Assembly (NCBI GenBank): GCA_026386845.1
Contig: JAPLMW010000063.1
Span: forward strand, 4,315 to 68,314
DNA: 64,000 bases
Reading direction: 5' to 3'
Source of the DNA: Phycisphaerae bacterium
Lineage (GTDB): Bacteria; Planctomycetota; Phycisphaerae; Sedimentisphaerales; UBA12454
The notes beneath the pieces were generated by a model. It saw only the letters and a program-made list of their open reading frames with translations. It was not told the origin of the DNA and ran no database searches. Positions 6,934-19,594 of this stretch are shown here, in pieces. The position numbers and the translations under genes were made by a program. Position 1 is the first letter of the stretch; every line of letters begins with the position of its first letter.

Positions 6934-7548
6934 ATGGAAATCGAGGTTTTAGAAGGCAGCAATATGGGAAGCGATATTAACGAATTAAAAGAAGCTTGGA
7001 ATCGAGCAACAGATTCTGATGTAATAAAAGCAGCTACCAAAGATTGGGGAGAATACTCCCCTGATGCTCAGATAATAATCGAAACTGAAGCAAGAAACAG
7101 GGGTTTATTGGAAGAAGTGCTTGCTTTAAGAGGTGAAAAGACAAGTGAACCAATTTCCAAAGAAGGTATTGTTTCTAATGCCAAGGAAAAAGAAAAGCCA
7201 ATTCTCGACATAGTTGTTCGTATTGGATGTTTTATTATCGGATTTGTCCTTTGGAAATTTCTCGGCCTTGCTCCCTTTATATTGTTACTTGCTTTCATAA
7301 TTGGTGAACCGCTCGCAAAATGGTATTTCGAACGCCAAAAAGTTAATCAAACTTTTATCAAATGGATTGTTTGGTCAAATGTTTTGACTTGGTTCTTACT
7401 ACCACCCCTTGGCATATTGACTGGTTCTATGGCTCTTCAATTTAGTAATCTTGTTGAGCAAGAAAAGAAAAAATATAAAATTTTAGCAATAACTGGTATA
7501 GGATTATCGCTAATAAACGCGATTGCTGGATTTATAATGAGATTGTGA
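6934..7548 (+). CDS. hypothetical membrane protein (low-GC islet)
   Basis: 204-aa ORF with a soluble N-terminus and several TM segments. AT-rich. Confidence 0.45.
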   Translation: MEIEVLEGSNMGSDINELKEAWNRATDSDVIKAATKDWGEYSPDAQIIIETEARNRGLLEEVLALRGEKTSEPISKEGIVSNAKEKEKPILDIVVRIGCFIIGFVLWKFLGLAPFILLLAFIIGEPLAKWYFERQKVNQTFIKWIVWSNVLTWFLLPPLGILTGSMALQFSNLVEQEKKKYKILAITGIGLSLINAIAGFIMRL

Positions 7549-7567
7549 TAAATGATATTGAAGTAAA

Positions 7568-7621
7568 ATTGCCCTCGGTGCGGTGTTGTTGAGAAAAAGT
7601 GGAACCTTTTTGAAAAGGTAG
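7568..7621 (+). repeat. PEP-CTERM-tail-like repeat, copy 1
   Basis: One frame reads IALGAVLLRKS, followed by the hairpin ccttttt-g-aaaagg. Related to 8771-8834 and 60886-60985. Confidence 0.5.
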
Positions 7622-7626
7622 ATATT

Positions 7627-7983
7627 ATGCGAAAGTTATCGCCCAAATGGCCTGTGAGGATGACTATAGTTGCCTTTTTGTCACCGATGCTCTATGTGTT
7701 TTTTCGGATTCCACCGATATTCCATGTGTTTTTTGGTGAGGTTGAAAAGCCTCCAATTATCAGTACCACAGAACTTGCAGAAAAAGTCGTAGGGGCAGTT
7801 GGTATAACGACAATAATTTGGTTAATTTACGGTGTTTCTTGCCTTTGTGCACGAACTTGGGTAAATTGTGAAAAATGCAAGTTTTCAGATGTTACACAAG
7901 ACTCCAAAGAAATGAAGTGCCAATTAAATGGTTACAATTATCCTATAACTTACTCTTGTAAAAAGTCCAGACCGAAGAAATGA
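7627..7983 (+). CDS. hypothetical membrane protein
   Basis: 118-aa ORF with two or three TM segments and a Cys-rich C-terminus. Its stop overlaps the next start (ATGA at 7980). Confidence 0.35.
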   Translation: MRKLSPKWPVRMTIVAFLSPMLYVFFRIPPIFHVFFGEVEKPPIISTTELAEKVVGAVGITTIIWLIYGVSCLCARTWVNCEKCKFSDVTQDSKEMKCQLNGYNYPITYSCKKSRPKK

Positions 7984-8324
7984 GCAAAAGTATATTGACA
8001 AACAGACCACACTTAATACCGTCTTTGCTCGTAGTGGCAATGTTGCTCTTAGCTTTAGCAGATTTGCCTTATGGTTATTATCAACTGCTCAGGTTTGTTG
8101 TTTGTGGTGTCGCAGTATATATAGCTTATATGGCATACACTTGGCAAAAAATGTGGGCTGTGTGGCTGTTTGCTTTTATTGCTATTTTATTTAATCCTTT
8201 GGTGCCAATACATTTTTCGAGAGAACTTTGGCAGGTTTTAGATTTTATTTGTGCAATACTGTTTATCGTTAGTTTGTTTGTCGTCCATTTGCCGACAAAT
8301 AATAAATTGCATAAATCGTCATAG
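7980..8324 (+). CDS. small hypothetical membrane protein
   Basis: 114-aa ORF with four predicted TM helices. Coupled to the upstream ORF. Confidence 0.45.
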   Translation: MSKSILTNRPHLIPSLLVVAMLLLALADLPYGYYQLLRFVVCGVAVYIAYMAYTWQKMWAVWLFAFIAILFNPLVPIHFSRELWQVLDFICAILFIVSLFVVHLPTNNKLHKSS

Positions 8325-8350
8325 AATGGCTTTCATAGGAAAGGAAGTTT

Positions 8351-8764
8351 ATGGATATATCTAAAGAACAGTCGGAGTCAGTTTCCATCTGGCAACTGAC
8401 GGATGAACAGAGGCAACAAATCTATGAAGAGGAAAAACGTTGCATAGAGAAGACTTCGCCGATGTTATCCAAAAGAGCGATATTTTATGTTGCCGTCTAT
8501 TTTTTTGGCTGCCTACTCCTTTACTTTGGTATCCCGCAGGCTTTCATCGATTTTTGTGGAACTCGACAGTGGACGTATCAACCGGAATCGAATATTTTCG
8601 TGTCGCTTCTCAACGCAGCAGTCGAGTTGATTCGTCCATTTTTAGCGGTAGTTATAACATTCTGGGTCGTTGCTGTACCTGCTGGGATTATTTGGGGGGT
8701 TTGGATTTTGGGCAATAATTTCATCAAATTTTTCAAGCGACTGGTCAATAAGGGTAAGAATTAA
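8351..8764 (+). CDS. hypothetical membrane protein
   Basis: 137-aa ORF with GGAAAGGAAG upstream of the ATG and TM helices. Confidence 0.4.
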   Translation: MDISKEQSESVSIWQLTDEQRQQIYEEEKRCIEKTSPMLSKRAIFYVAVYFFGCLLLYFGIPQAFIDFCGTRQWTYQPESNIFVSLLNAAVELIRPFLAVVITFWVVAVPAGIIWGVWILGNNFIKFFKRLVNKGKN

Positions 8765-8770
8765 AGCCAA

Positions 8771-8834
8771 ACTCCTACTGCTCGGCCTTGGTGCGGTGGT
8801 TTTAAGAAAAAGATGCCAAACGTTTTTCAAAGGG
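8771..8834 (+). repeat. PEP-CTERM-tail-like repeat, copy 2
   Basis: One frame reads KLLLLGLGAVVLRKR, a hydrophobic stretch plus a basic cluster. Starts 7 nt after the preceding stop codon. Confidence 0.55.
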
Positions 8835-8887
8835 AAAAAATGAAAACTAAATCTAGTTTTGTACTGCGTTTAATATAGGATTAAGAA

Positions 8888-9691
8888 ATGATATTATGTA
8901 AATACTTGGGTAGTGATGGATGTGTAGATATTATAAAAAACCAGAGGCTTTTGGCTGCAGACCCCACAAATTTAAATGACCCATTTGAAATAAAACCGGG
9001 AGTTATTGGTACTCCTGATAAGGTAAAAACATTGCGGTACTTTTATAATGAATTATTGCCAGAAAGATATTCAGATACCAAAGTAGCATTGCCTATTTTT
9101 AATGATGATGCGGCCTTGAAAAAAATAGAGCAAGACTTGAAACCAGCCATAATTGAGCAGATTGAAAAAAATTTGATATGGGCGTCGAAAACCCTGCGAA
9201 TAATATGTTTTTGCAACCCTATCAAAATAAAAGATGGAGACGATGTATTACTTTGGTCTCATTATAGTGATAAACATAAGGGGATGAGGATTTTTTTTGA
9301 AACAGATGAGATTAAAACGCTCAGCAATAATTTATTTCCGGTCGATTATTCTTTTGAACGGCCGAATTTCGATATAACAGATCCCGCCTCAAAGATTAAA
9401 ATCGAAGATGCACGTCGTATTATTAAAACAAAAAATAAAAGTTGGGAATATGAACAAGAGGTTAGATGGATAATTAGTTTACAAGAATGCATACAGAAAG
9501 ACGGACGATCATATATCCCACTTTCGCCTAAGGCCATTCGGAGAATAGATTTTGGCTGCAAATGTGAGAGCGAAAAAGTTATACCTTTGTTAAAAGATGA
9601 TGATAATGCTTATCAACATGTTAAATTGTATAAGGCATTAGTTCATGAACGTAGGTATTCTTTAAAGTATAAAGAAATTAATAATAAATAA
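8888..9691 (+). CDS. DUF2971-family protein
   Basis: 267-aa ORF. The LLWSHYSDKHKGMRIFF motif and overall layout are typical of DUF2971. Confidence 0.6.
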   Translation: MILCKYLGSDGCVDIIKNQRLLAADPTNLNDPFEIKPGVIGTPDKVKTLRYFYNELLPERYSDTKVALPIFNDDAALKKIEQDLKPAIIEQIEKNLIWASKTLRIICFCNPIKIKDGDDVLLWSHYSDKHKGMRIFFETDEIKTLSNNLFPVDYSFERPNFDITDPASKIKIEDARRIIKTKNKSWEYEQEVRWIISLQECIQKDGRSYIPLSPKAIRRIDFGCKCESEKVIPLLKDDDNAYQHVKLYKALVHERRYSLKYKEINNK

Positions 9692-9868
9692 TAGTGGCCG
9701 CCTGCCCTGCTTGCCCTGTGAGATGGCGCTTCGCCTATCTCACAGGGGTGAAGTGTTTACCCTGTGGGATGTGAAACTATCCCATCGGGGCCTGCCCTGA
9801 GCGCAGTCGAATGGGTTCAGTGTTCAGCATTTTCTGTTAACTGCACACTGCAAACTGTGAACTTCTGA

Positions 9869-10968: not shown

Positions 10969-11646
10969 TTACTTTTTATTTTTACCTTTTTTATCGTCTT
11001 CTACTTCGTGGAGGACCTCATCGATTAGGCCGTATTCTTTTGCTTCGTGTGCAGTCATATATCTGTCGCGTTCTGTTTCTGCGGTGATTTTGTCGATTGG
11101 TTGTCCGGTATGTTTCGAAAGGATTTCGTTTATCATTTGTTTTGCCTTGAGTATTTCCTCCGCTTGAATTTTTATATCCGCCGCTTGTCCGTAAACACCG
11201 CCCCAGGGTTGATGGAGCATGATTTTTGCATGGGGCAGAGCATGACGGCGATCCTTAGCGCCGGCGGCGAGAATAATCGCCCCGCCGGATTCCGCACGAC
11301 CAATACAATACGTCGCAACAGGCGAACCAATAAACTGCATCGTGTCATAAATCGCCATCGTATCGTCAACACTTCCGCCGGGCGAATTTATGTAAAGACT
11401 AATCTCACTGCCGCGCTTCTGATTGTCGAGATATAACATCTTCATAATAACGGCGGCAGCCAAGCTGTAAGAGATTTCGCCAATCATAAAAATAATCCGA
11501 TTCTCCAGCAGCATATCATCAAGCGTCATCTCACGCGTCCGCTGATAACTCTGCTGCTGTATTTGCAGCATTGGCCCTCCGTCGCCAAGGCTATGGAGGG
11601 TCTTCGATTCGACTGATTTTATCAGACCTTTTTGCGGTTCAAACAT
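10969..11646 (-). CDS. clpP: ClpP paralog (ClpP2-type)
   Basis: Carries GRAESGGA, MLHQPWGG and a conserved Asp. The ATG at 11646 has AAGGA upstream. Alternative starts are 11670 (GTG) and 11571 (ATG preceded by GGAGGG from a hairpin repeat). Confidence 0.85.
   Translation of the reverse strand: MFEPQKGLIKSVESKTLHSLGDGGPMLQIQQQSYQRTREMTLDDMLLENRIIFMIGEISYSLAAAVIMKMLYLDNQKRGSEISLYINSPGGSVDDTMAIYDTMQFIGSPVATYCIGRAESGGAIILAAGAKDRRHALPHAKIMLHQPWGGVYGQAADIKIQAEEILKAKQMINEILSKHTGQPIDKITAETERDRYMTAHEAKEYGLIDEVLHEVEDDKKGKNKK
11575..11600. repeat. CCCTCC..GGAGGG hairpin repeat at the clpP2 5' end
   Basis: ccctccgtcgccaaggctatggaggg, the same family as 11836-11861 (tccgccgtcgccaagggctatggcgga). Confidence 0.75.
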
Positions 11647-12119
11647 CCTAATTTCCTTAAAGACGACCACTTAAAGCTATTATCGGCTATTTTTTGGTAT
11701 TACTTTTCTCTGGCAAGGTTAATTTTCGGGAAATTCCTCTGGCTGTCAAGAGTTAAAAATAGTCGCTGGTATTTAGTTGATAGTCACTAAGGCACAAAGA
11801 CACGAATTTTTTTAGCCACAGAGTTCTGGAGAACATCCGCCGTCGCCAAGGGCTATGGCGGACAGGCAGAGAATTTTTTTAGACACTGATGAACAAGTTT
11901 GTTTCAACAAGTCCATTTTGCAAATGGCCTTTTACTCAAAGCATTAAGCCGTACTCGAAATACCCCTTCGACTTTGCTCAGGGCTGGATTTCTGCGTTCA
12001 GCTTTTCTGCTTTTCGCTGCGGCACAATAAACTATGCCTCGTTGAAACAAAACACGGATGTCTCACCGCTTTCCTGACTTTGCCTTAAAGCAAGAAGTCG
12101 TCTGTTGTTAGTCGTTTTC

Positions 12120-12159
12120 AACTATGCTTGTATGCAGTATACTGCATACAAGCATAGTT
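12120..12159. repeat. 40-bp perfect palindrome
   Basis: aactatgcttgtatgcagta|tactgcatacaagcatagtt, read directly from the sequence. Confidence 0.95.
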
Positions 12160-12335
12160 CATATGAGTATAGAGATTGGGGAGTTTTATATTGGGGATTT
12201 GAGATTTGAAATTGAAGAAAAAATGCCGGCTAAAGGGCGGTGATTGAACCCTGCCCCCCGCCTCCGATTACTCGAGGGCAGGCTCTACGCGAGGACAAGT
12301 TTTTAATTTGAGGATTTTGGGGCAAAAAATGATGC

Positions 12336-12359
12336 TTGATAACTATCAAGCAAAGGTGA
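12336..12359. repeat. right arm of the inverted repeat flanking the clpP pair
   Basis: ttgataactatcaagcaaaggtga, the reverse complement of 10078-10101. Confidence 0.8.
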
Positions 12360-12553
12360 AAAAAAACGACAGAATTTAAGATTGAAAATTTAAAATTGAA
12401 GATTTGAAATTGAAGAAAAATGCCGCCTAAAAAGGGCGGCCAAACCCCGCCATGGTCCCCCTACGGAGGATTAAAATGATGGCAGGGCTAACCCCCCGCC
12501 GGCCCCCACATTCGCGAGGGTAAACTCCGGTCCGGGGGCTAATCAGATTGGAT

Positions 12554-12582
12554 TTGTATTTTCGACAAAAGCAGTATATAAT
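12554..12582 (+). promoter_or_regulatory. candidate sigma70-type promoter of the STAND-RT operon
   Basis: TTGTAT, a 17-nt spacer, then TATAAT, about 27 nt upstream of the GTG start. Confidence 0.35.
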
Positions 12583-12608
12583 TTTAAGAGAATTTATGAG
12601 GTAAGGAC

Positions 12609-14642
12609 GTGAACGAAAAACTGATATTCGTAGGAAGACAAGAGGAACTTGAGCAGTTCAAAAAAATTCTCCAAGACCCACAAGGACAAGCTGTCTTAGT
12701 CATTGGACAGACAGGTATGGGCAAAACATTTCTTGTCGACAAAATGGCTGAAATTGCAGCGGACCATCCGGATTTTAAATGCTTTGTCTTGCGTTATGAA
12801 GTTACACCAACCGATCCTGCGAATACCATTATGGCTGAGATTATGGATGATGCCGCAGATGCGATTGACTCTGTGATCAACAAGGTAAAAAAATTATTTA
12901 AACGAAACAAGAGTAAACTTGCTGTGGTATTTAATGTCGGAGGATTGATTCCTATTGTGGGCTCACGAGCCAAGGCGGTTAATGATTTGGTTGTTAGTTT
13001 AACAGAACGAGACAAGGCAGGAAATGTTCGCGAGCAGTTTATTGAGATATTGCAAAAGTTGAGCGACAATATGCCGGACAAAAGCAGGGCGATATTCGTA
13101 ATCGACCCGGTAGGGTATATGCAGAAAGAAAGTGATTATGCTTGGGGGCTTGTCATACGTCAACTGCCGCCGAAGATAAAGTTTTTGTTTCCGCAACGGC
13201 CAGAGGATGTTTTGGTTAAGGGGGAAGGATTAACAAAGTGTAATAATATAGTCCGAATTCCCGAAGGCCAACTAAAACGATTCGACGATAAGACTATCGA
13301 AGAGTTGGTGAAAACTCAGTCACAACAAGTGCCAGAACAAGAAAATGAAATGCGAATTGGCACAGGACGATCAGATAAAAGTCCGTATGCCGTGTCAGGA
13401 ATGCTGGAATTGATTGCCAAGACTGGCATAAAACTTGATGATCTGGCGCAATATCTCGGCCAAAGAGAAGTTGCGCGAGCTCAATGGCGTGGAATATGCA
13501 ACAATAGCGAGAATGCTAAGCAATTGTTTGAGGGATATGCAATTTTGGAGGTTGGTGTGCCGGATGAAATAATAGAATATGTAAGCGGATTAAATTCTTA
13601 CCAAATTCAGCATTTATCCGCAGATAATTATCTTAAAGGACTCTTGCGAGAAGAAGGAGAGGGAAAGAGGATTTATCATTCGATATTAACTGAATACATT
13701 CTTGGACAAATGAATGATGCGGAAAAGAAAAAACAGCATTCGCAGGCGGTTAAAATTTATAGGGGGAAATTAAAAAAGGCAAGAGCTGAACAAACCAAGC
13801 CGGATGAATTAGCGGCAACGAGATTACCTGAACACGTTTTGGCAGCTGAAGGGCAGGAGGCTTTTGTAAGTTCATTCATAAATGAATGTTTCAGCCCCTT
13901 GCGTACTCTCGGTGCATTAGATAGCTGCATTAGTCTATCAGAACGAGCCTTACAAATGGTAAAGAAAGGCTCGGAAAGACAAACAATGCTTTTAGGTAAT
14001 TTAGGCCTGATTTACCAGCATCGCGGCGAATTGGAGAAGGCTGAGGAAATGTTAAAAAAGTCGCTGCAAATAAATGAAAAACTCGGCAGGCTCAAAGGGA
14101 TGGCAAATCAGTTTTGCAACTTGGGCAATGCTTACTATATGCGCGGCGATTTGGACAAGGCTGAAGAGATGCAGAAAAAGGCACTAGCGATTGACGAAAA
14201 ACTCGGCAGGCTCGATGGAATGGCAAGTGATTATGGCAACTTGGGCATTGTTTACATGGCGCGCGGCGATTTGGACAAGGCTGAAGAAATGCATAAAAAA
14301 TCGCTGCAAATAGAAGAAAAACTTGGCAGGCTCGAGGGAATAGCAAGTGAATACAGTAATCTCGGCATAATTTACCAGATGCGAGGCGAGTTGGACAAGG
14401 CTGAAGAAATGCATAAGAAGTCATTACGGATAAGTGAAAAACTCGGCCATCAGGAGGGGATAGCGACAAACTATCATAATCTCGGCCTGATTTACCAAAA
14501 ACGCGGGGATATGAAAAAGGCAAAAGAATATTGGGTAAAGGCGCGGGATTTATTTGAAAAAATTGGGATGCCACATAGAATAAAACAAGTGCAGGGGTGG
14601 ATTGATTCCGCCGAAGACAACGGCAAAGGCAGAAAATTATGA
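12609..14642 (+). CDS. STAND-type (AAA_16-like) P-loop NTPase with C-terminal TPR repeats
   Basis: 677-aa ORF with a GTG start and GAGGT 6 nt upstream. Carries FVGRQEELEQF plus Walker A GQTGMGKT (nt 12705-12728) and a Walker B-like AIFVIDP. Has four to five tandem 40-aa TPR units (GDLDKAEEMhKKSL.I.EKLGRL.G.A..Y.NLG). Confidence 0.8.
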   Translation: MNEKLIFVGRQEELEQFKKILQDPQGQAVLVIGQTGMGKTFLVDKMAEIAADHPDFKCFVLRYEVTPTDPANTIMAEIMDDAADAIDSVINKVKKLFKRNKSKLAVVFNVGGLIPIVGSRAKAVNDLVVSLTERDKAGNVREQFIEILQKLSDNMPDKSRAIFVIDPVGYMQKESDYAWGLVIRQLPPKIKFLFPQRPEDVLVKGEGLTKCNNIVRIPEGQLKRFDDKTIEELVKTQSQQVPEQENEMRIGTGRSDKSPYAVSGMLELIAKTGIKLDDLAQYLGQREVARAQWRGICNNSENAKQLFEGYAILEVGVPDEIIEYVSGLNSYQIQHLSADNYLKGLLREEGEGKRIYHSILTEYILGQMNDAEKKKQHSQAVKIYRGKLKKARAEQTKPDELAATRLPEHVLAAEGQEAFVSSFINECFSPLRTLGALDSCISLSERALQMVKKGSERQTMLLGNLGLIYQHRGELEKAEEMLKKSLQINEKLGRLKGMANQFCNLGNAYYMRGDLDKAEEMQKKALAIDEKLGRLDGMASDYGNLGIVYMARGDLDKAEEMHKKSLQIEEKLGRLEGIASEYSNLGIIYQMRGELDKAEEMHKKSLRISEKLGHQEGIATNYHNLGLIYQKRGDMKKAKEYWVKARDLFEKIGMPHRIKQVQGWIDSAEDNGKGRKL

Positions 14643-16240
14643 AATTAGATTTTGGGAAAGCACTAAAGAAAATAGTTATTGAAGATTTAAAAGGGAACAA
14701 CCCTATACCTGATATACTTGGATTTTTGCATCTTAAGGTTTTATTGAAGCCTGATTTCAATTCTAAGTTGAATAAGATTCTCGATGACTATCTGAAAGAT
14801 AAATATAGACCAAAACCTCAATTAACAATAGATGTACCAAAAGCCAATTTTACTATTAGACCTATGGCTAGACCTGTTACAGAGGATTGGATAATATATG
14901 AGGCAATAATTGAATATCTATCGAAAAGAATTTTAAAGAAAGACAAAAAAATATGTGGCAGAAGTTGTAGTATTCTAAATTTCAAAGAGGACGGTTTGAG
15001 TACAAGGGATGCTTGGTTAAAATTTGATAAACACTCTTGGAATTTCTATGAGAAAGGTTATGAGTTTGCCGTTACTACTGACATAACAGGATATTATGAA
15101 AATATTAGTATAGATGAATTAAGAAGAAGAATCATCGATTATCTGGGGCAGGATAATGATGGAAAAAAATTGAATCAAGTTATTGTAAACCAGTTAAAGA
15201 ATTGGAGTGATGAGCGAATATCGGGTTATGGGTTACCCCAAGGGCCTCCGGGATCATCATTTCTTGCAGATATCTTTTTAGATTCTGTAGATAGGGCGAT
15301 GGAAAAGTATAGGGGATACTTTAGATATATGGATGATATTAGGATTTTTTGTAAGGATGCAATCGAGGCGAAGTTGGCGCTAAAAGAATTAACAATAGCA
15401 TTAAGAGCACTTAAACTTAACATCAATGCAAAAAAAACAGATATACTCCAAGAAAGGGAAATAGAGGAAAATCTGTTTGATCCTCAAAAGTCTCTTATGA
15501 ATGTGATAGAAAAATCCATTAAATCTGGCAATCAGAGAATAATAAAAGAAATTGTTCCTGAATTACTAAAACTTGTAGAAATTGCATTTTTAGAGGATCC
15601 TTTTGAGAAACGGCATTTAAATTTTGGTCTGTATCGCCTAGGCGTTCTGTATAACAGCGGATTCCAATTTAACAAAGAACGAATTATTGGGAAAATCGAA
15701 AAAAATTTCGTCAGCAAGCCTCACCATACTGGATTGTTTTGCGACTTTTTGTCAATGTTTCCAGATGATGAAAATGTTCCTAAATTCCTAATAAAGTTTT
15801 TGAAGTCTCCCGATAATATTTATGAGGGACAGGAACTAAAAGTACTGCGGAGCCTTCTACGGTTTAATTTTCAATCATCTCGCCAAGATGTTGATTTCTT
15901 TTTAAAGTCTGCTCAAGATTCAAATAAGCATTATGCTATTCGCGCGTTTTATTTTATGTTGCTCGGAAAACACGGAAACAATAGGGATCGAAACTTGATA
16001 ATCGAATGCTATAATAGTTTATCTGAGGTTTATACTAAAATTACAGTGATTCTATCTGTTCAAGAATTAGGTTTACCAAATAGGAATGATTTTTACGCAC
16101 GAGTCAAAAGAAAAGAAAGCAATAATGATATTAACGAATTTATAGATTATGTAAAATCTTTGTCTAAACCCACTTATTTCTTAACAGTAGAAAGACCTAG
16201 AATAAAAACTTATGAAGAGTACGAAGGAAACTTCTATTGA
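14639..16240 (+). CDS. reverse transcriptase, stand-alone UG/Abi/DRT-like, with a helical C-terminal region
   Basis: 533-aa ORF whose ATG overlaps the upstream stop (ATGA). RT motifs present: RPMARP, TTDITGYYENI, GLPQGPPGSSFLADIFL, FRYMDDIRIF (YMDD at nt 15326-15337) and LKLNINAKKT. No maturase or endonuclease domain recognised. Confidence 0.85.
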   Translation: MKLDFGKALKKIVIEDLKGNNPIPDILGFLHLKVLLKPDFNSKLNKILDDYLKDKYRPKPQLTIDVPKANFTIRPMARPVTEDWIIYEAIIEYLSKRILKKDKKICGRSCSILNFKEDGLSTRDAWLKFDKHSWNFYEKGYEFAVTTDITGYYENISIDELRRRIIDYLGQDNDGKKLNQVIVNQLKNWSDERISGYGLPQGPPGSSFLADIFLDSVDRAMEKYRGYFRYMDDIRIFCKDAIEAKLALKELTIALRALKLNINAKKTDILQEREIEENLFDPQKSLMNVIEKSIKSGNQRIIKEIVPELLKLVEIAFLEDPFEKRHLNFGLYRLGVLYNSGFQFNKERIIGKIEKNFVSKPHHTGLFCDFLSMFPDDENVPKFLIKFLKSPDNIYEGQELKVLRSLLRFNFQSSRQDVDFFLKSAQDSNKHYAIRAFYFMLLGKHGNNRDRNLIIECYNSLSEVYTKITVILSVQELGLPNRNDFYARVKRKESNNDINEFIDYVKSLSKPTYFLTVERPRIKTYEEYEGNFY

Positions 16241-16585
16241 TATATGTTTTTAGATGAATGAATGTTGCCTCAGACAAAAAGAAAGTAATATAAATGCCGG
16301 ATAGAGATGTAAAATGATTAAGGATTTTGAGAAAAAGGAACCCCGCACCGAAGCCCCGGTGAGAAGCCCCGATGGGATAAGCCCAGTTAGATAGCCTTAG
16401 AGGAAATTCAAGAAGAGAAGTTCAAAGGCCACCCCGCTGAGATAGCCGAAGCGGACCCCGATGAGGTAGTCTTAAGATACTTCGATGAAGCAGCATAAAG
16501 ACACCTCACAGGGTAAACTCCGAAAGTGGAGCAGGTGAGAAAGGTGTGAAAAGTGTGAAGGGTGTGAAAGGTGTAAAACAAAAAA

Positions 16586-16616
16586 CCCCCAGTAAAACTG
16601 GGGGCTAAATATTTTT
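16586..16616. terminator. stem-loop terminator between the convergent RT and tig genes
   Basis: cccccag-taaaa-ctggggg, with a T6 run on the minus-strand side (tig) and a weaker T5 run on the plus side. Confidence 0.6.
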
Positions 16617-16718
16617 GAATGACGGACCCCGCACCTATTTTTTATAACGGCAAATGTGAAAACTAGCGTTTATTTTTTCCCTGTAGCAGTACCAAAGCAG
16701 CAGCACTCGGGAATGACA

Positions 16719-18272
16719 TTACTTTTTCTTCGGTGAAGGTTTTTTAACGGTTTTTGTTTCCTTCTTTTCTTTGGTTTTTTCTTCTTTCTTTGGGGTCTTT
16801 TCTTCTTTCTTTTCTTTTTGTTTTTCAGCCTTTTTTTCGGTCTTCTCTTCTTTTTTATGCGCAACCTTCTTTACAGGTTTGGCTTCTGCTTTGGCGTGCT
16901 TTTCCGCAATCTTCTTCGGTTCTACTTCTGTAATCTTCGCTGATTCGAGAATTTTGTCAATGCACTTAATTTCCCGTATCTCAATCGCCGCCTGCGCAAG
17001 CGAACCATCGCGCGACATCTGCTCCCGCAGCTTTTCCGGCCGAACCTGCCTGTACATCGCCACCTGCGCGATATAGCCGTTGATTTCCTCTTCGGTAGTC
17101 TGGATATCAAGCTTCTTCGCAATGGCATCCATCACAAAAAAGGTTTTAAGCTGCTCATTTGCCTGCTCGTCGCTTGCAGATTTTAACTGCTCCATCTGCT
17201 TTTGAATTTCTTCTGTTTTGACGCCCTGCATAAGAAGCCTTGTATATTGCCGCTGAAGGAGCTGCTGCGACTGGTCGGCAACGATGTTTGCCGGCAGGTC
17301 GAAATTGACTTTTTCGAGCAGATAGTTTCTAACCGACTGACGCATCGCATCTTTCTGGTGTCTTTCAACGTCCGCTTCGCTCCGCTGGCGTATCATTTTG
17401 ACGAGTTCCTCTTTATTGGCTGCGCCGAATCTCTTGAAGAAATTCTCGTCGAGCTGCGCAGGCTGGAGCTCCTTTACATCGTTGATTTTAATTTCGACGT
17501 CAACTTTTTTGCCGCGATATTTTTCGTCAAAAAATGTGGTCTGCACTTCGACCGCAGTTGTTTTTACATCGCCTGCTTTTGCGCCAACCAGAAGCTCATC
17601 GAGCTTGTCAACCGGCACTTTGCCGACAAGGCCGCGATGATGGGCGTAAATTTCGGTATTTTCGATTTTTTCCTTTTCGCCGCCTTCGGGTTTCAAAACG
17701 ACATCAGCAATAACCTGGTCGTCTGCGGCGATTTTGCCGTCCTTTGGCTTCCATGTTCCCACTCTTTTCTGAAGTTCGGCTATTTCCTGCTCGACGGCAT
17801 CATCGGTAACTTCAAGCTTTGGCTTTTCAACAGGAATGCCTTCGAGGGCCGGCAATTCAAATTCCGGGCGGACTTCAACTTCAAACTCAAATTTCAGCGA
17901 GCCTTGTGCCGGCAGTTCGATTTTTTCGTGGTCGATATCCGGGTCGCCCAGGACATTAAGACCGCTATCCTTTATCGCAGTTTCGCTGGCACTGGAAAGC
18001 AATTTGAGTTTTGTCTGCTCGCCGATTTCTTTTCCGAACCGTTTTTCGAGCAGCCTCCGGGGGGCCCTGCCTTTGCGAAAACCGGGAACAATAGCGTCCC
18101 TGCCAAGGTCTTTGTACTGCTCATCGAAGACCTTAGTGATTTTTTCAGCTGGGACTTCTATGCTGATTTTCTTTTTGCAGGGTCCTGCATCGGTGATATT
18201 CACGATGTTTTTTATTTCATCTTTGGTTTCGGTTTGAGCCTCAGCAGTGTCCTTTTCCTTTGCCATTTGCAA
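16719..18272 (-). CDS. tig: trigger factor with a Lys/Glu-rich C-terminal tail
   Basis: 517-aa ORF. The N-terminal ribosome-binding region (GFRKGRAPRRLLEKRFG), the FKBP-like middle and the C-terminal domain are all recognisable. It has an extra K/E-rich tail of about 65 aa. Confidence 0.95.
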   Translation of the reverse strand: MQMAKEKDTAEAQTETKDEIKNIVNITDAGPCKKKISIEVPAEKITKVFDEQYKDLGRDAIVPGFRKGRAPRRLLEKRFGKEIGEQTKLKLLSSASETAIKDSGLNVLGDPDIDHEKIELPAQGSLKFEFEVEVRPEFELPALEGIPVEKPKLEVTDDAVEQEIAELQKRVGTWKPKDGKIAADDQVIADVVLKPEGGEKEKIENTEIYAHHRGLVGKVPVDKLDELLVGAKAGDVKTTAVEVQTTFFDEKYRGKKVDVEIKINDVKELQPAQLDENFFKRFGAANKEELVKMIRQRSEADVERHQKDAMRQSVRNYLLEKVNFDLPANIVADQSQQLLQRQYTRLLMQGVKTEEIQKQMEQLKSASDEQANEQLKTFFVMDAIAKKLDIQTTEEEINGYIAQVAMYRQVRPEKLREQMSRDGSLAQAAIEIREIKCIDKILESAKITEVEPKKIAEKHAKAEAKPVKKVAHKKEEKTEKKAEKQKEKKEEKTPKKEEKTKEKKETKTVKKPSPKKK

Positions 18273-18571
18273 CTCCTAAGATTCTTAATATTCTTTGAAC
18301 CCCTCGGCATCCTTCGTTGCGCTCAGGATTAAGGCCGAGGGGCTAATTACTAAATATAAAATAAAAAAGCTTCAGGTCCAATATGTCCCGAAGCCTATTA
18401 AAGCTTTTCTGACATATCAGCGACCACCGCCTGGCTAACAAATTAGCCGATACCTCACTGATAATTTTTTAGTCGTTAGTTGATAGTCGCTAGTGAAAAG
18501 TTTACACCAAGCTGTTTTCGGCAACAATGAATAAACTACTCACTATTCACTAAAAACTATACTCTAACTAA

Positions 18572-18643
18572 AGCGGGTGATGAGGCTCGAACTCACGACA
18601 TTCACGTTGGCAACGTGACGCTCTACCACTGAGCTACACCCGC
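18572..18643 (-). tRNA. tRNA-Gly (anticodon GCC)
   Basis: The hand-folded cloverleaf is GCGGGTG/TA/GCTC-AGTGGTA-GAGC/G/TCACG-TTGCCAA-CGTGA/ATGTC/GTGAG-TTCGAGC-CTCAT/CACCCGC-T. CCA is not encoded. Confidence 0.9.
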
Positions 18644-19317
18644 GATTTTAAGGTAAATAGCAGTATATACAAGTTTTTAAGTGCTTTCAAGAGGTTTTTC
18701 TCTGGTTTTTGGGGAACAAGGGGGCCGAAGATGTCGCGGTTAAGGACAGCAAATTGGCCGCACAAAGCCTTGGCGGCGTTGTCGTAAGCAATGGCGGCTT
18801 CAATCTCCGTATCAAATGAACCAAGATTTATCTCTTTGCCGTTATGCCTTATGCGCGCATACCATTTGCCGGTGCGTTTATCGAGCCTGACGCCTTTATA
18901 TTTCGAAGCGCCGTTGTAAAAGCCCCTTTCGCTGTTCCAGCAATTCTGCATATTGTTAACAATCCGCAGATTCGTCCTGCGATTGTCGAGGCCGTTGCGG
19001 TTAATGTGGTCAACGATAGCGCCTTGAGGAGCATTCATAATACGCCTGTGCATAAAGATATTTCTGCGGCCTTCGGTGCGGACCGCATAAAAGTTATTTT
19101 TGTTCTTATTCTCGAAAAGATACCATTTATCCTTGTTCAATTTTTCGAAATCCTCAACATCGACAATGGCGTATTTGCCCTGCGTGAGCCTGATACGCCT
19201 GAATTCATAGCCATAGCGGATTTTTCGATAGCGCAGCAAAAGTGTTATGCAAAGGCGAATTAAAATAGCCGGCATATAATAAGGAACAGGCGGAATTTGA
19301 ATGTGAAGAATAGGCAT
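18634..19317 (-). CDS. HNH endonuclease / AP2-domain protein
   Basis: 227-aa ORF with an HNH_3-like IVDHINRNGLDNRRTNLR and an AP2-like YKGVRLDKRTGKWYARIRHNGKEINLGSFDTEIEAAIAYD. Paralog of 58418-59065. Its 3' end overlaps the tRNA by 10 nt. Confidence 0.75.
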   Translation of the reverse strand: MPILHIQIPPVPYYMPAILIRLCITLLLRYRKIRYGYEFRRIRLTQGKYAIVDVEDFEKLNKDKWYLFENKNKNNFYAVRTEGRRNIFMHRRIMNAPQGAIVDHINRNGLDNRRTNLRIVNNMQNCWNSERGFYNGASKYKGVRLDKRTGKWYARIRHNGKEINLGSFDTEIEAAIAYDNAAKALCGQFAVLNRDIFGPLVPQKPEKNLLKALKNLYILLFTLKSRV

Positions 19318-19594
19318 AGGGACTCCAGGAAAAAGTGAAAAGTGAAAAACTAAAAGTGAAAAGTTTTAGAATCCCGATAAATCGGGATGTAAGTTTTAAA
19401 TTTTTAGTCAAGGAAGCTATATAAATCAAGATGTTTTTTGCGGCAAATATTAACTTTTTATCTAACGATATGGGTATTTTATCAAATTGCCTAACAAAAG
19501 TCAAGGAGAAAATGTGAATTAGCCACTAAGTCATTAAGTCGCTAAGTCATTAAGGAACAAAGGGTTATAATTATCAAAAAAGCGATTTGCTCAT

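Follow-up and report, generated by a model that had tools for sequence, protein, structure and literature searches.

Whether a STAND-type NTPase gene and a reverse transcriptase (RT) gene that overlap by four nucleotides form a new two-gene immune system is the question raised by this locus, found in a Phycisphaerae bacterium. The window analysed is a stretch of 64,000 nucleotides of this genome. An earlier note on this DNA had proposed that the pair constitutes an undescribed RT-based defence-type system, the STAND protein acting as sensor and the RT as effector. The analysis described here gives a different picture: the genes appear to be adjacent passengers of a small inserted island, not a new two-gene immune system.

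The island between tig and clpP1

ORF calling confirmed two long ORFs on the + strand, overlapping by ATGA as had been noted (Table 1); ORF1 has a GTG start and ORF2 an ATG start. An identical ATGA junction is carried by two other assemblies (L135 and L136), both of which are other sequencing runs of the same strain, and the ORF1-RT pair is stable in the three assemblies of this strain.

Table 1. Features of the locus, with positions in the window
Feature	Position	Strand	Basis or detail
~5-kb insertion separating tig from clpP1, lineage-specific	11699..16779 (approximate)	.	Homology to relatives
Left non-coding part of island, 938 nt	11671..12608	.	BLAST, alignment A3, repeats
ORF1, effector-less STAND-type NTPase, 677 aa	12609..14642	+	ORF, Pfam, AF2 model, homologues
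ORF1 domains			NTPase ~1-200, helical and winged-helix ~227-356, arm ~358-434, TPR ~437-673
Walker A GQTGMGKT, residues 33-40	12705..12728	+	G33, G36, G38, K39 and T40 invariant in 36 family members
Walker B IFVID(166), then PVG	13092..13115	+	Printed alignment columns
Sensor-like TPR domain: some five clear units of 40 aa, others degenerate	13917..14627	+	Pfam, DNA periodicity, model
ATGA, ORF2 start codon over ORF1 stop codon	14639..14642	+	Sequence 'AAA TTA TGA' / 'ATG AAA TTA'
ORF2, UG21-group Class 1 UG/Abi RT, 533 aa	14639..16240	+	PADLOC, Pfam, AF2 model, fold matches, alignment
ORF2 parts			N-terminal helices 1-~60, fingers/palm/thumb ~60-283, alpha-repeat ~284-507, conserved tail
Catalytic YMDD, residues 230-233	15326..15337	+	D232 and D233 invariant, M231 nearly so, in 38 homologues
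Spacer, RT stop to tig stop, 478 nt	16241..16718	.	Hairpin, repeat and structure searches

Two relatives, L149 and L150, whose tig is 81-82% identical, keep the outer synteny of the window and have the gene order tig, 16 nt, clpP, clpP. Because tig and clpP lie only 16 nt apart in these relatives, the block holding ORF1 and the RT is identified as a lineage-specific insertion. Homology of tig to the relatives ends at 16779/16780 and resumes at 11708; BLAST matched 11671-11708 to the tig-clpP junction of L149/L150, and a relic of the ancestral tig 3' end (~11687-11745), complete with a TAG stop and the 16-nt tig-clpP spacer, is found next to clpP1. Judged from these alignments, the island is inserted into the extreme 3' end of tig and splits the otherwise contiguous tig-clpP-clpP cluster of this Phycisphaerae MAG. 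A closer relative (L148, tig 94% identical) carries different cargo at the same place, and ~90 nt (16540-16630) are common to the window and to this differently loaded island. The tig-clpP junction is a variable, cargo-swapping hotspot in this Phycisphaerae lineage, and as such offers a way into the accessory genes of a phylum that has been little studied.

In the left non-coding part of the island, positions 12120-12159 form a perfect 40-nt palindrome and local repeats occupy 12196-12444. Between the RT and tig, the DNA at 16300-16500 is G+C-rich and structured; a 9-nt tandem repeat (GGTGTGAAA x4, 16523-16576) and a bidirectional terminator-like hairpin (16584-16606) were also identified there. 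A second defence-type gene, PDC-S31, is located nearby.

The G+C content and GC3 of the RT gene (0.324 and 0.275) are the lowest of the 28 long ORFs in the window (median 0.466 and 0.50), agreeing with the low G+C relative to tig (0.469) remarked on earlier, and composition shifts sharply at both ends of the RT ORF; GC3 of ORF1 is 0.41. Among RT orthologues, G+C is below that of the flanks at 35 of 36 loci: low G+C is therefore a trait of the family, and the junction is not dated by RT composition. Orthologues are typically preceded by a spacer of ~100-450 nt (median ~130), whereas the window copy has none of its own. Since the ATGA overlap leaves no such spacer, expression of the RT would depend on the ORF1 transcript, unless a predicted promoter-like site within ORF1 (14554-14581) is real.

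The STAND-type NTPase and the reverse transcriptase

Pfam analysis of ORF1 identified AAA_16 at residues 7-168 (E 1e-9) and TPR_12/TPR_1/TPR_10 in four to five stretches at 440-655. A match to TPR_MalT was also obtained, while that to NACHT scored 17.5 bits against a cut-off of 26.7. In the AlphaFold (AF2) model (pLDDT 78.8 overall, with a low-confidence NTPase core at pLDDT 45-70), the NTPase is followed by a helical domain, a winged helix with its beta hairpin at 346-355, an arm and five to six helix pairs; the paired helices at 437-673 have pLDDT >90. The TPR units are visible in the DNA as a 120-nt periodic repeat (13995-14594). The best full-length PDB match of the model is a STAND-TPR protein, Pyrococcus PH0952 (6MFV; 702 columns, E 1.5e-13). 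ORF1 thus possesses the P-loop GxxGxGKT, hhhhD, helical domain, winged helix and repeat sensor by which STAND NTPases are recognised, and the NTPase-arm-sensor layout first read from its Walker A, Walker B and TPR stretches is upheld by both Pfam and the model.

ORF1 shares with PH0952 and MalT-type proteins the order of P-loop NTPase, helical domain, winged helix, arm and TPR, as well as family variants with an HTH output, but identity to PH0952/MalT-type proteins is 17% and a DNA-binding domain is absent from ORF1. In general logic, a STAND NTPase followed by a sensor made of C-terminal repeats, ORF1 also resembles Avs and bNACHT proteins. Unlike these, ORF1 has no N-terminal effector domain (in Pfam or in the model, the NTPase beginning at residue 7) and matches no Avs or bNACHT defence profile in PADLOC, where only generic TPR models and weak N-terminal matches to PDC-S27 (2e-5), mad8 (2e-5) and PDC-M16A (3e-4) were returned. 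This absence leaves room for a separately encoded effector.

At least 257 homologues of ORF1 were found, mostly in Sedimentisphaerales/Phycisphaerae. The family is large and native to this group, its members elsewhere being solitary and of varied context; neighbours include the housekeeping genes V-ATPase, leuA and sigma-54, and in other proteins this NTPase module carries a sigma-70 region 4 HTH at its C-terminal side (P0148) or lacks a C-terminal domain altogether. Walker B falls in family-invariant columns of the alignment and is followed by Glu and Lys, within (I/V)DPEK, in 35/35 aligned homologues; ORF1 alone lacks Glu168/Lys169 (E168V/K169G). An identical protein, this loss included, is encoded in two other assemblies. 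On the alignment, the loss could be the mark of a change of function after arrival of the RT.

ORF2 matches Pfam RVT_1 at residues 118-274 (2e-17). It contains FRYMDDIRIF, with D148, D232 and D233 invariant across 38 homologues, and every catalytic and family-invariant residue is kept in an intact ORF. In the AF2 model (pLDDT 91.6, pTM 0.90), ~60 helical N-terminal residues precede the RT and residues ~284-507 form an all-helical repeat domain (pLDDT >90), followed by a conserved tail with invariant K506 and Y513. The stand-alone RT with complete palm motifs, N-terminal extension and alpha-repeat-like C-terminal region described in the earlier note is therefore sound. The RT, which that note had not placed in a UG class, can be assigned to an existing one by a full-length match to PADLOC RT_UG21 (2e-75, 252.5 bits), in which residues 40-497 align with positions 36-493 of the 503 in the model. 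The runner-up model, UG9_small (8e-55), is 20 orders of magnitude poorer, and scores for the DRT4 and DRT6 profiles are likewise well under that of UG21. On this margin between profile scores, ORF2 is classed as UG21, a Class 1 UG/Abi RT (RT + alpha-repeat).

UG21 has been described as a Class 1 group without a partner gene, a HEAT-like C-terminus being stated for UG20/21/23, and its defence association was called 'inconclusive' in the survey of Mestre et al. 2022 (PMC9226505). ORF2 agrees with this description in its full-length match, HEAT-like alpha-repeat C-terminus, size (~530 aa) and rarity. Nothing differs in the protein itself; what is new here is that the host belongs to the Phycisphaerae, that a STAND gene overlaps the RT gene, and that orthologues are associated with restriction-modification (R-M) genes (see below). 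Full-length fold matches were obtained to DRT6 (UG12; 9wy8, the best, TMq 0.57), DRT4 (UG15; 9vdo, 9vdv; TMq 0.49), AbiK and Abi-P2. DRT6 and DRT4 (PMC12783706) share the RT + alpha-repeat architecture over ~500 columns and are single-gene anti-phage systems, like the loci of the RT orthologues, although they belong to other UG groups and are only 14-16% identical to ORF2. The Class 1 fold and helical repeat are also shared with the abortive-infection polymerases AbiK, Abi-P2 and AbiA (7r06-7r08, 8oz7; TMq up to 0.55) at 12-16% identity, AbiA possessing a HEPN domain that ORF2 lacks. Tyr227, Tyr395 and Tyr513 are invariant in the RT family and are candidate priming tyrosines; among Abi/DRT Class 1 families, priming residues are not conserved in position (PMC12783706).

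Distribution of the pairing and of the RT family

No relative of ORF1 was found near the RT in any of 40 distinct lineages (38 dereplicated, P0002 and P0015), and a phmmer search with the ORF1 NTPase region at E<=10 returned nothing in 130 RT loci. Conversely, none of six ORF1 homologues (P0122, P0125, P0126, P0128, P0130 and P0132) has an RT nearby. Fusions were likewise not seen: RVT_1 is absent from the 120 ORF1 homologues listed, and the longest RT homologue is <=824 aa. The only other occurrences of the pairing are those in L135 and L136. The proposed sensor-effector couple accordingly finds no comparative support, and conservation of the two genes as neighbours, put forward by the earlier note as a check, is not seen outside one strain. 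The note had also named what would count against it, and this was found in part, as no other lineage has the two genes side by side and a defence model already described covers the RT. Its RT-type and domain calls stand, as does its 'defence-type' label, UG21 being an already named class of that kind; novelty and the two-gene system do not. The pairing itself is probably of little weight, because the reading as a new system rests on one strain.

The RT family is rare (59 representatives at E<=1e-30) and is conserved at 42-76% identity across phyla, implying selection. No non-coding flank is conserved among the orthologues compared. Of the 24 lineages whose flanks reach >=3 kb, 7 have type I R-M genes near the RT; with P0015 this becomes 8/25 (~30%), spanning Actinomycetota, Nitrospirae, Saccharibacteria and others. 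Integrases are near the RT in three lineages. Some orthologues are located between hsdM and hsdS, or just after hsdR-YgjP. In one lineage (L007) the start codon of the RT shares 4 nt with the end of hsdS, and in another the RT lies 9 nt after hsdM (L096). Since tight or overlapping junctions with unrelated upstream genes thus occur elsewhere, as with hsdS, the ATGA overlap is probably no sign of a co-evolved pair. Accessory defence genes can be embedded in type I R-M operons, an example being the anticodon nuclease PrrC of the prr locus. RT orthologues share this type of embedding, whereas the window copy lies outside any R-M operon. The RT is a persistently AT-rich single-gene cassette moving between phyla. 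For UG21, the R-M association together with AT-richness above that of the host is what a defence gene typically shows, so that the group is a reasonable single-gene candidate both for phage defence and for the catalogue of untemplated DNA-writing enzymes.

Explanations for the locus

The locus is probably best read as an independent UG21 RT and ORF1, of separate histories, sharing one ~5-kb accessory island. The RT cassette would have landed directly behind an expressed gene, ORF1, giving rise to the 4-nt overlap and, by virtue of that position, to co-transcription. The RT most likely acts on its own, by analogy with its closest characterised structural relatives, DRT6, DRT4, AbiK and Abi-P2. 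Extrapolating from these relatives, with ~15% sequence identity, the alpha-repeat domain would assemble the RT into an oligomer producing untemplated, protein-primed single-stranded DNA joined to a tyrosine; a phage factor may then stabilise this product, which would become toxic or sequestering and abort infection. Untemplated, protein-primed synthesis by Class 1 enzymes has been described (PMC12783706, PMC13174585), and no ncRNA family was found at the locus in Rfam. Counted against this reading are the missing RT spacer, the effector-less ORF1, its Glu168/Lys169 loss and the small number, six, of ORF1-family contexts compared.

Some of these points also favour an unlikely alternative, a recently formed, lineage-specific two-component system. 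It would have arisen by capture of the RT cassette downstream of a STAND gene without effector, whose STAND-TPR product would detect either a phage cue or the DNA made by the RT and gate the RT as its effector. The shared strand, the ATGA overlap without an RT-specific spacer, an NTPase starting at residue 7, the unique E168V/K169G in an otherwise invariant DPEK motif, the common island, the nearby PDC-S31 and the stability of the pair in three assemblies all fit such a system; were it real, the locus would illustrate the gain of a new effector by an NLR-like sensor. It is countered by its restriction to a single lineage (0/40 and 0/6), the lack of fusions, RT contexts without any STAND gene, the hsdS overlap, a GC3 of 0.41 against 0.275, which argues for different origins, and the lack of an Avs/bNACHT-type PADLOC match. 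That a newly born immune module is already at work, ORF1 without Glu168/Lys169 gating untemplated DNA synthesis by the RT or answering its product, is slightly less probable again; if true, an NLR-like sensor would for the first time have been seen joined to an effector that synthesises DNA, and at the moment of its origin. An RT of another class, from a retron, a group II intron or a DGR mutagenising the TPR domain of ORF1, is very improbable, in keeping with the earlier view. RTs of the retron clade are ~300-400 aa with adjacent msr/msd RNA; ORF2, of 533 aa with an alpha-repeat, scores 35 bits with retron_St85_RT (cut-off 235) and no RNA family matched. Its group II score (TIGR04416) is 88 bits against a cut-off of 300, with no intron RNA in Rfam at E<=1 and no maturase/En domain; these weak scores compare with 252 bits for UG21. 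There are precedents for DGR RTs that diversify STAND sensors (PMC10907252), but no TR/VR repeat pair was found between the 3' end of ORF1 and the non-coding DNA near the RT, which is UG21. Equally doubtful as the newly born module is a non-immune locus, where ORF1 is a MalT-like signal-transduction ATPase (regulator or scaffold) and the RT gene, selfish or decaying, hitch-hikes without benefit to the host. The sigma-70 region 4 HTH and domain-less variants of the NTPase module, as in MalT/LAL-type regulators, the housekeeping neighbours of ORF1 homologues and the 'inconclusive' defence prediction for UG21 (PMC9226505) are consistent with it. Against it, the RT reading frame is unbroken and keeps every catalytic and family-invariant residue, its identity across phyla implies selection, ~30% of RT lineages lie in or beside type I R-M operons, and the characterised Class 1 relatives are all anti-phage.

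Identity of the two proteins

The locus holds a reverse transcriptase (RT) of UG21, a Class 1 UG/Abi group, beside a STAND-TPR gene, both on a small island at a tig-clpP hotspot. The two plus-strand ORFs of the earlier note, together with the short overlap that joins them, were confirmed in the sequence. ORF2 is an RT with palm motifs as had been described, with a Pfam RVT_1 match, the motif FRYMDDIRIF and catalytic aspartates (D148, D232 and D233) that are invariant in 38 homologues. PADLOC analysis gave an end-to-end match to the RT_UG21 model (E 2e-75; residues 40-497 of the protein on 36-493 of the model's 503), the next models (UG9_small, UG19 and UG23) being worse by twenty orders of magnitude; the RT can thus be classified. 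Readings of the RT as a retron, group II intron or DGR enzyme were rejected, in agreement with the note: scores fell far under the cut-offs of the NCBIfam group II, retron and Drt2-5 models, and neither an Rfam RNA nor TR/VR repeats were found.

UG21 has been listed among the rare classes of RT (PMC8934634). Passages of the 2022 UG/Abi survey assign it to Class 1, in which the RT is fused to a HEAT-like alpha-repeat domain, and give it no named partner gene and an 'inconclusive' defence status (PMC9226505). The AlphaFold model of the RT, for which 38 homologues were used, is of high confidence (pLDDT 91.6, pTM 0.90): helices at the N-terminus precede a fingers-palm-thumb core, and residues 284-507 form a repeat domain that is helical throughout. 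Over the full length it is matched best in the PDB by hexameric DRT6 (TMq 0.57), DRT4, AbiK, UG15, Abi-P2, DRT9 and AbiA.

ORF1 had been read as a STAND NTPase with TPR units. Pfam matches place AAA_16 at residues 7-168 and TPR families in series at residues 440-655, and the alike TPR units give rise to a 120-nt periodicity in the DNA (13995-14594). Walker A (GQTGMGKT) and Walker B (IFVID166) are invariant columns in a 36-member alignment. As a PDB sequence search with the NTPase region gave marginal AAA+ matches only, a fold search was needed. Over 702 columns this ranked 6MFV first, a STAND protein whose crystal structure includes a TPR domain; the reading is therefore correct. The winged-helix, arm and TPR parts of the ORF1 model are good and its NTPase core is weak. 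ORF1 has no N-terminal effector domain, the NTPase beginning at residue 7, and it matches neither an Avs nor a NACHT-type defence profile in Pfam or PADLOC. The family of ORF1 is large and found in Sedimentisphaerales/Phycisphaerae; its NTPase module (~48% identity) is also seen with a sigma-70 region 4 HTH at the C-terminus instead of TPR, or without a C-terminal domain (homologues P0148, P0145 and P0239). This resembles the MalT-like signal-transduction ATPases and suggests a modular signal-transduction family.

Features of the locus and of two comparison contigs (window positions unless a contig is named)
Feature	Position	Strand	Details
DUF2971 gene	8888-9691	+	267 aa, G+C 0.33; PADLOC PDC-S31 full-length match, 1.7e-38
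Relic of ancestral tig 3' end	11687-11745		beside clpP1; TAG stop and 16-nt spacer kept
Perfect palindrome	12120-12159		40 nt (20-nt arms, no spacer); long leader upstream of ORF1
Duplicated ~50-nt motifs	12196-12444		GATTTGAAATTGAAGAAAAATGCCGsCTAAA..GGGCGG; leader upstream of ORF1
ORF1	12609-14642	+	GTG start, 677 aa
Walker B and following residues	13092-13115		ORF1 residues 162-169; IDPVG here, (I/V)DPEK in 35/35 aligned homologues
Sigma-70-like promoter match	14554-14581	+	TTGAAA-16-TAGAAT, 10 of 12; within ORF1 3' end, 58 nt upstream of RT start
ATGA overlap, ORF1 stop/RT start			4 nt; AAA-TTA-TGA / ATG-AAA-TTA
ORF2 (RT)	14639-16240	+	ATG start, 533 aa
HNH_3 + AP2 domain gene	18572-19317	-	adjoins tRNA-Gly(GCC)
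Cargo after tig, L148	1910-4518		255-aa protein (weak DUF5887 match), 279-aa protein, 89-aa protein
Neighbourhood of ORF1 homologue P0126, L140	6001-9410		4-nt-overlapping downstream gene encodes 479-aa TPR-only protein

An island at the tig-clpP junction

Two relatives of the source organism (L149 and L150, trigger factor 81-82% identical) share the order plsY-(HNH-AP2)-tig-clpP-clpP with the window, but in these relatives 16 nt separate tig from clpP. Homology between the window and these relatives ends at 16779/16780, within the 3' end of tig, and restarts at 11708; the 38 nt adjoining clpP1 are a relic of the 3' end of the ancestral tig that keeps its TAG stop and the 16-nt spacer, and the present tig carries a different Lys-rich tail of ~20 codons (16718-16779). 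From the spacing in the relatives, the homology break and the relic it follows that ~5 kb was inserted: ORF1 and the RT, with 938 nt of non-coding DNA on one side and a 478-nt spacer on the other. The block of ORF1 and RT is not bracketed by long repeats, direct or inverted, that could serve as att sites, and the island holds no integrase. Over an imperfect, A-rich ~27 nt the end of the present tig resembles the relic, which is suggestive of an att-like duplication but may be chance at low complexity.

In a further relative (L148, tig 94% identical) different, opposite-strand genes occupy the island position; PADLOC gave no match for the three proteins. Approximately 90 nt of the tig-proximal end of the island (compared with window 16540-16720) are common to both, comprising a terminator-like hairpin (16584-16606), the loop differing by a 60-nt insertion, and tandem repeats of the 9-nt unit GGTGTGAAA. 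With other cargo behind a shared island end, the junction is therefore a cargo-swapping hotspot. A low-G+C islet (7000-9700) with the DUF2971 gene, DUF6804 and an unknown ORF lies just beyond clpP2, where L149 and L150 have other genes (a HepT/MNT toxin-antitoxin pair, a kinase); PDC-S31 is a candidate single-gene defence family of PADLOC. Genes similar to the HNH-AP2 gene were seen at the syntenic position in L150 (4905-5504) and near an ORF1 homologue in L133 (12974-13588), and it may be a multi-copy homing-endonuclease-like element of the clade.

The low G+C noted earlier for the RT proved sharper than estimated: at 0.324 and 0.275 its G+C and GC3 rank below those of all other long ORFs of the window (28 in total; medians 0.466 and 0.50), the values for ORF1 are 0.425 and 0.414, and the composition break falls at both ends of the RT ORF. 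RT G+C is likewise under that of the flanks in 35/36 orthologue loci (median 0.306 vs 0.361). The spacer after the RT (16241-16583, 343 nt) folds better than shuffles (z -3.0 on the plus and -4.9 on the minus strand) and contains GGTGTGAAA x4 (16523-16576) and G+C-rich hairpins. As a candidate ncRNA or RT template it was rejected, having no counterpart near any RT orthologue and no Rfam match. Upstream, pieces of the ORF1 leader (33-35 nt, 88-94% identity) recur beside ORF1 homologues of other genomes (L137-L139, L141-L145).

Pairing of the STAND-TPR gene with the RT

Approximately 147 RT homologues were detectable, and 130 loci with relatives were examined. A phmmer search with the ORF1 NTPase region over the 52 loci with close RT orthologues (42-70% identity) gave no match even at E<=10. 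Dereplication reduced these loci to 38 lineages, to which P0002 and P0015 were added, and an ORF1 relative beside the RT was found in 0/40. P0002, the nearest RT homologue (76% identity), has a trypsin-like protease gene upstream. P0122, the closest ORF1 homologue (61% identity, full length), is followed by 436 nt of non-coding DNA, and neither here nor at five further homologues does an RT adjoin; downstream of those five are V-ATPase genes, a TPR-only protein, unknown genes, Fic or nothing notable. As for fusions, RVT_1 occurs in none of 120 ORF1 homologues among the matches listed, and in a library of 1.84 billion proteins the best 150 representatives include no RT homologue above 824 aa. 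Elsewhere the pair occurs only in L135 and L136, which are assemblies of this strain from sister sequencing runs; both carry the RT, so that no polymorphism with and without it was seen. On present data ORF1 and the RT are not a system, and of the earlier interpretation the domain calls and the defence-type character stand, while 'undescribed' and 'a system' do not.

That ORF1 and the RT nevertheless act as a functional pair, as first proposed, is unlikely given these counts. The RT here lacks an upstream spacer of its own, unlike most orthologues, and ORF1 has no effector domain; both would suit a pair. ORF1 is also alone among 36 family members in having DPVG in place of the invariant DPEK after Walker B, so that the catalytic glutamate may be lost; elsewhere the protein is conserved to the same degree as its relatives (6 departures from >=90% consensus). 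The substitution could reflect a changed function after capture of the RT or mere drift, between which one lineage cannot tell. The tight junction itself is not special to ORF1: same-strand gaps upstream of RT orthologues run from -4 to 461 nt, and in L007 the GTG start of the RT overlaps the TGA stop of hsdS by 4 nt in the same manner. Having landed directly behind ORF1, the RT cassette is presumably co-transcribed with it. The promoter-like site within the ORF1 3' end is the region's best match, to a sigma-70 consensus that may not apply in Planctomycetota.

A variable-partner arrangement for the ORF1 family was rejected: only P0126 has a 4-nt-overlapping downstream gene, for another TPR protein, and the downstream genes of other homologues are unrelated or distant. 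A 23S_rRNA_IVP family gene (four-helix-bundle) lies just downstream of the P0126 pair.

Genomic contexts and probable action of UG21 RTs

The RT is probably an autonomous Class 1 enzyme, the best-supported reading, and each mechanistic step is inferred by analogy with DRT4/DRT6 and AbiK/Abi-P2 (PMC12783706; overview in PMC13213688; also passages of PMC13174585). It would oligomerise through its alpha-repeat domain and synthesise untemplated, tyrosine-primed ssDNA; a phage DNA-binding protein would shield this ssDNA from host exonuclease, and its accumulation would abort infection. Rfam gave no family match in 11000-19500 apart from tRNA, and no non-coding flank is conserved among RT orthologues, which is consistent with an untemplated RT. 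The enzyme offers a specific single-gene candidate to join the immune enzymes that synthesise DNA without a template, a set that is still expanding.

Clustering of flanking ORFs in orthologue loci, confirmed by Pfam, revealed a recurrent arrangement, hsdM-(Fic)-RT-hsdS-hsdR-YgjP. Type I restriction-modification (R-M) genes adjoin the RT in 7 of the 24 lineages whose flank reaches 3 kb or more, and P0015 is an eighth case, its RT lying 254 nt after hsdS-hsdR-YgjP. R-M-embedded or R-M-adjacent loci come from several phyla (L077, L078, L013, L088 with L005, L081 and L083, L007, L052, L090, L068, L096, L151). The association, of which the text of the 2022 survey makes no mention (PMC9226505), strengthens the defence prediction for this group and is, together with the single-gene candidate itself, the main value of the locus. 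Integrases adjoin the RT in three lineages, and orthologue hosts include Actinomycetota, Nitrospirae, Saccharibacteria, Clostridia, Dadabacteria and one Asgard archaeon bin. No relative was found in IMG/VR, and nothing above 31% identity in PLSDB. These contexts and the AT-richness are the profile of a defence cassette that consists of one gene and is horizontally mobile.

The trypsin-like serine protease fragment 90 nt upstream of P0002 (L131, 2-673) has weak PADLOC matches (E ~5e-6) to LmuA and to the protease portion of the retron type XI RT-protease models, and recalls the protease-fused variant UG9-large.
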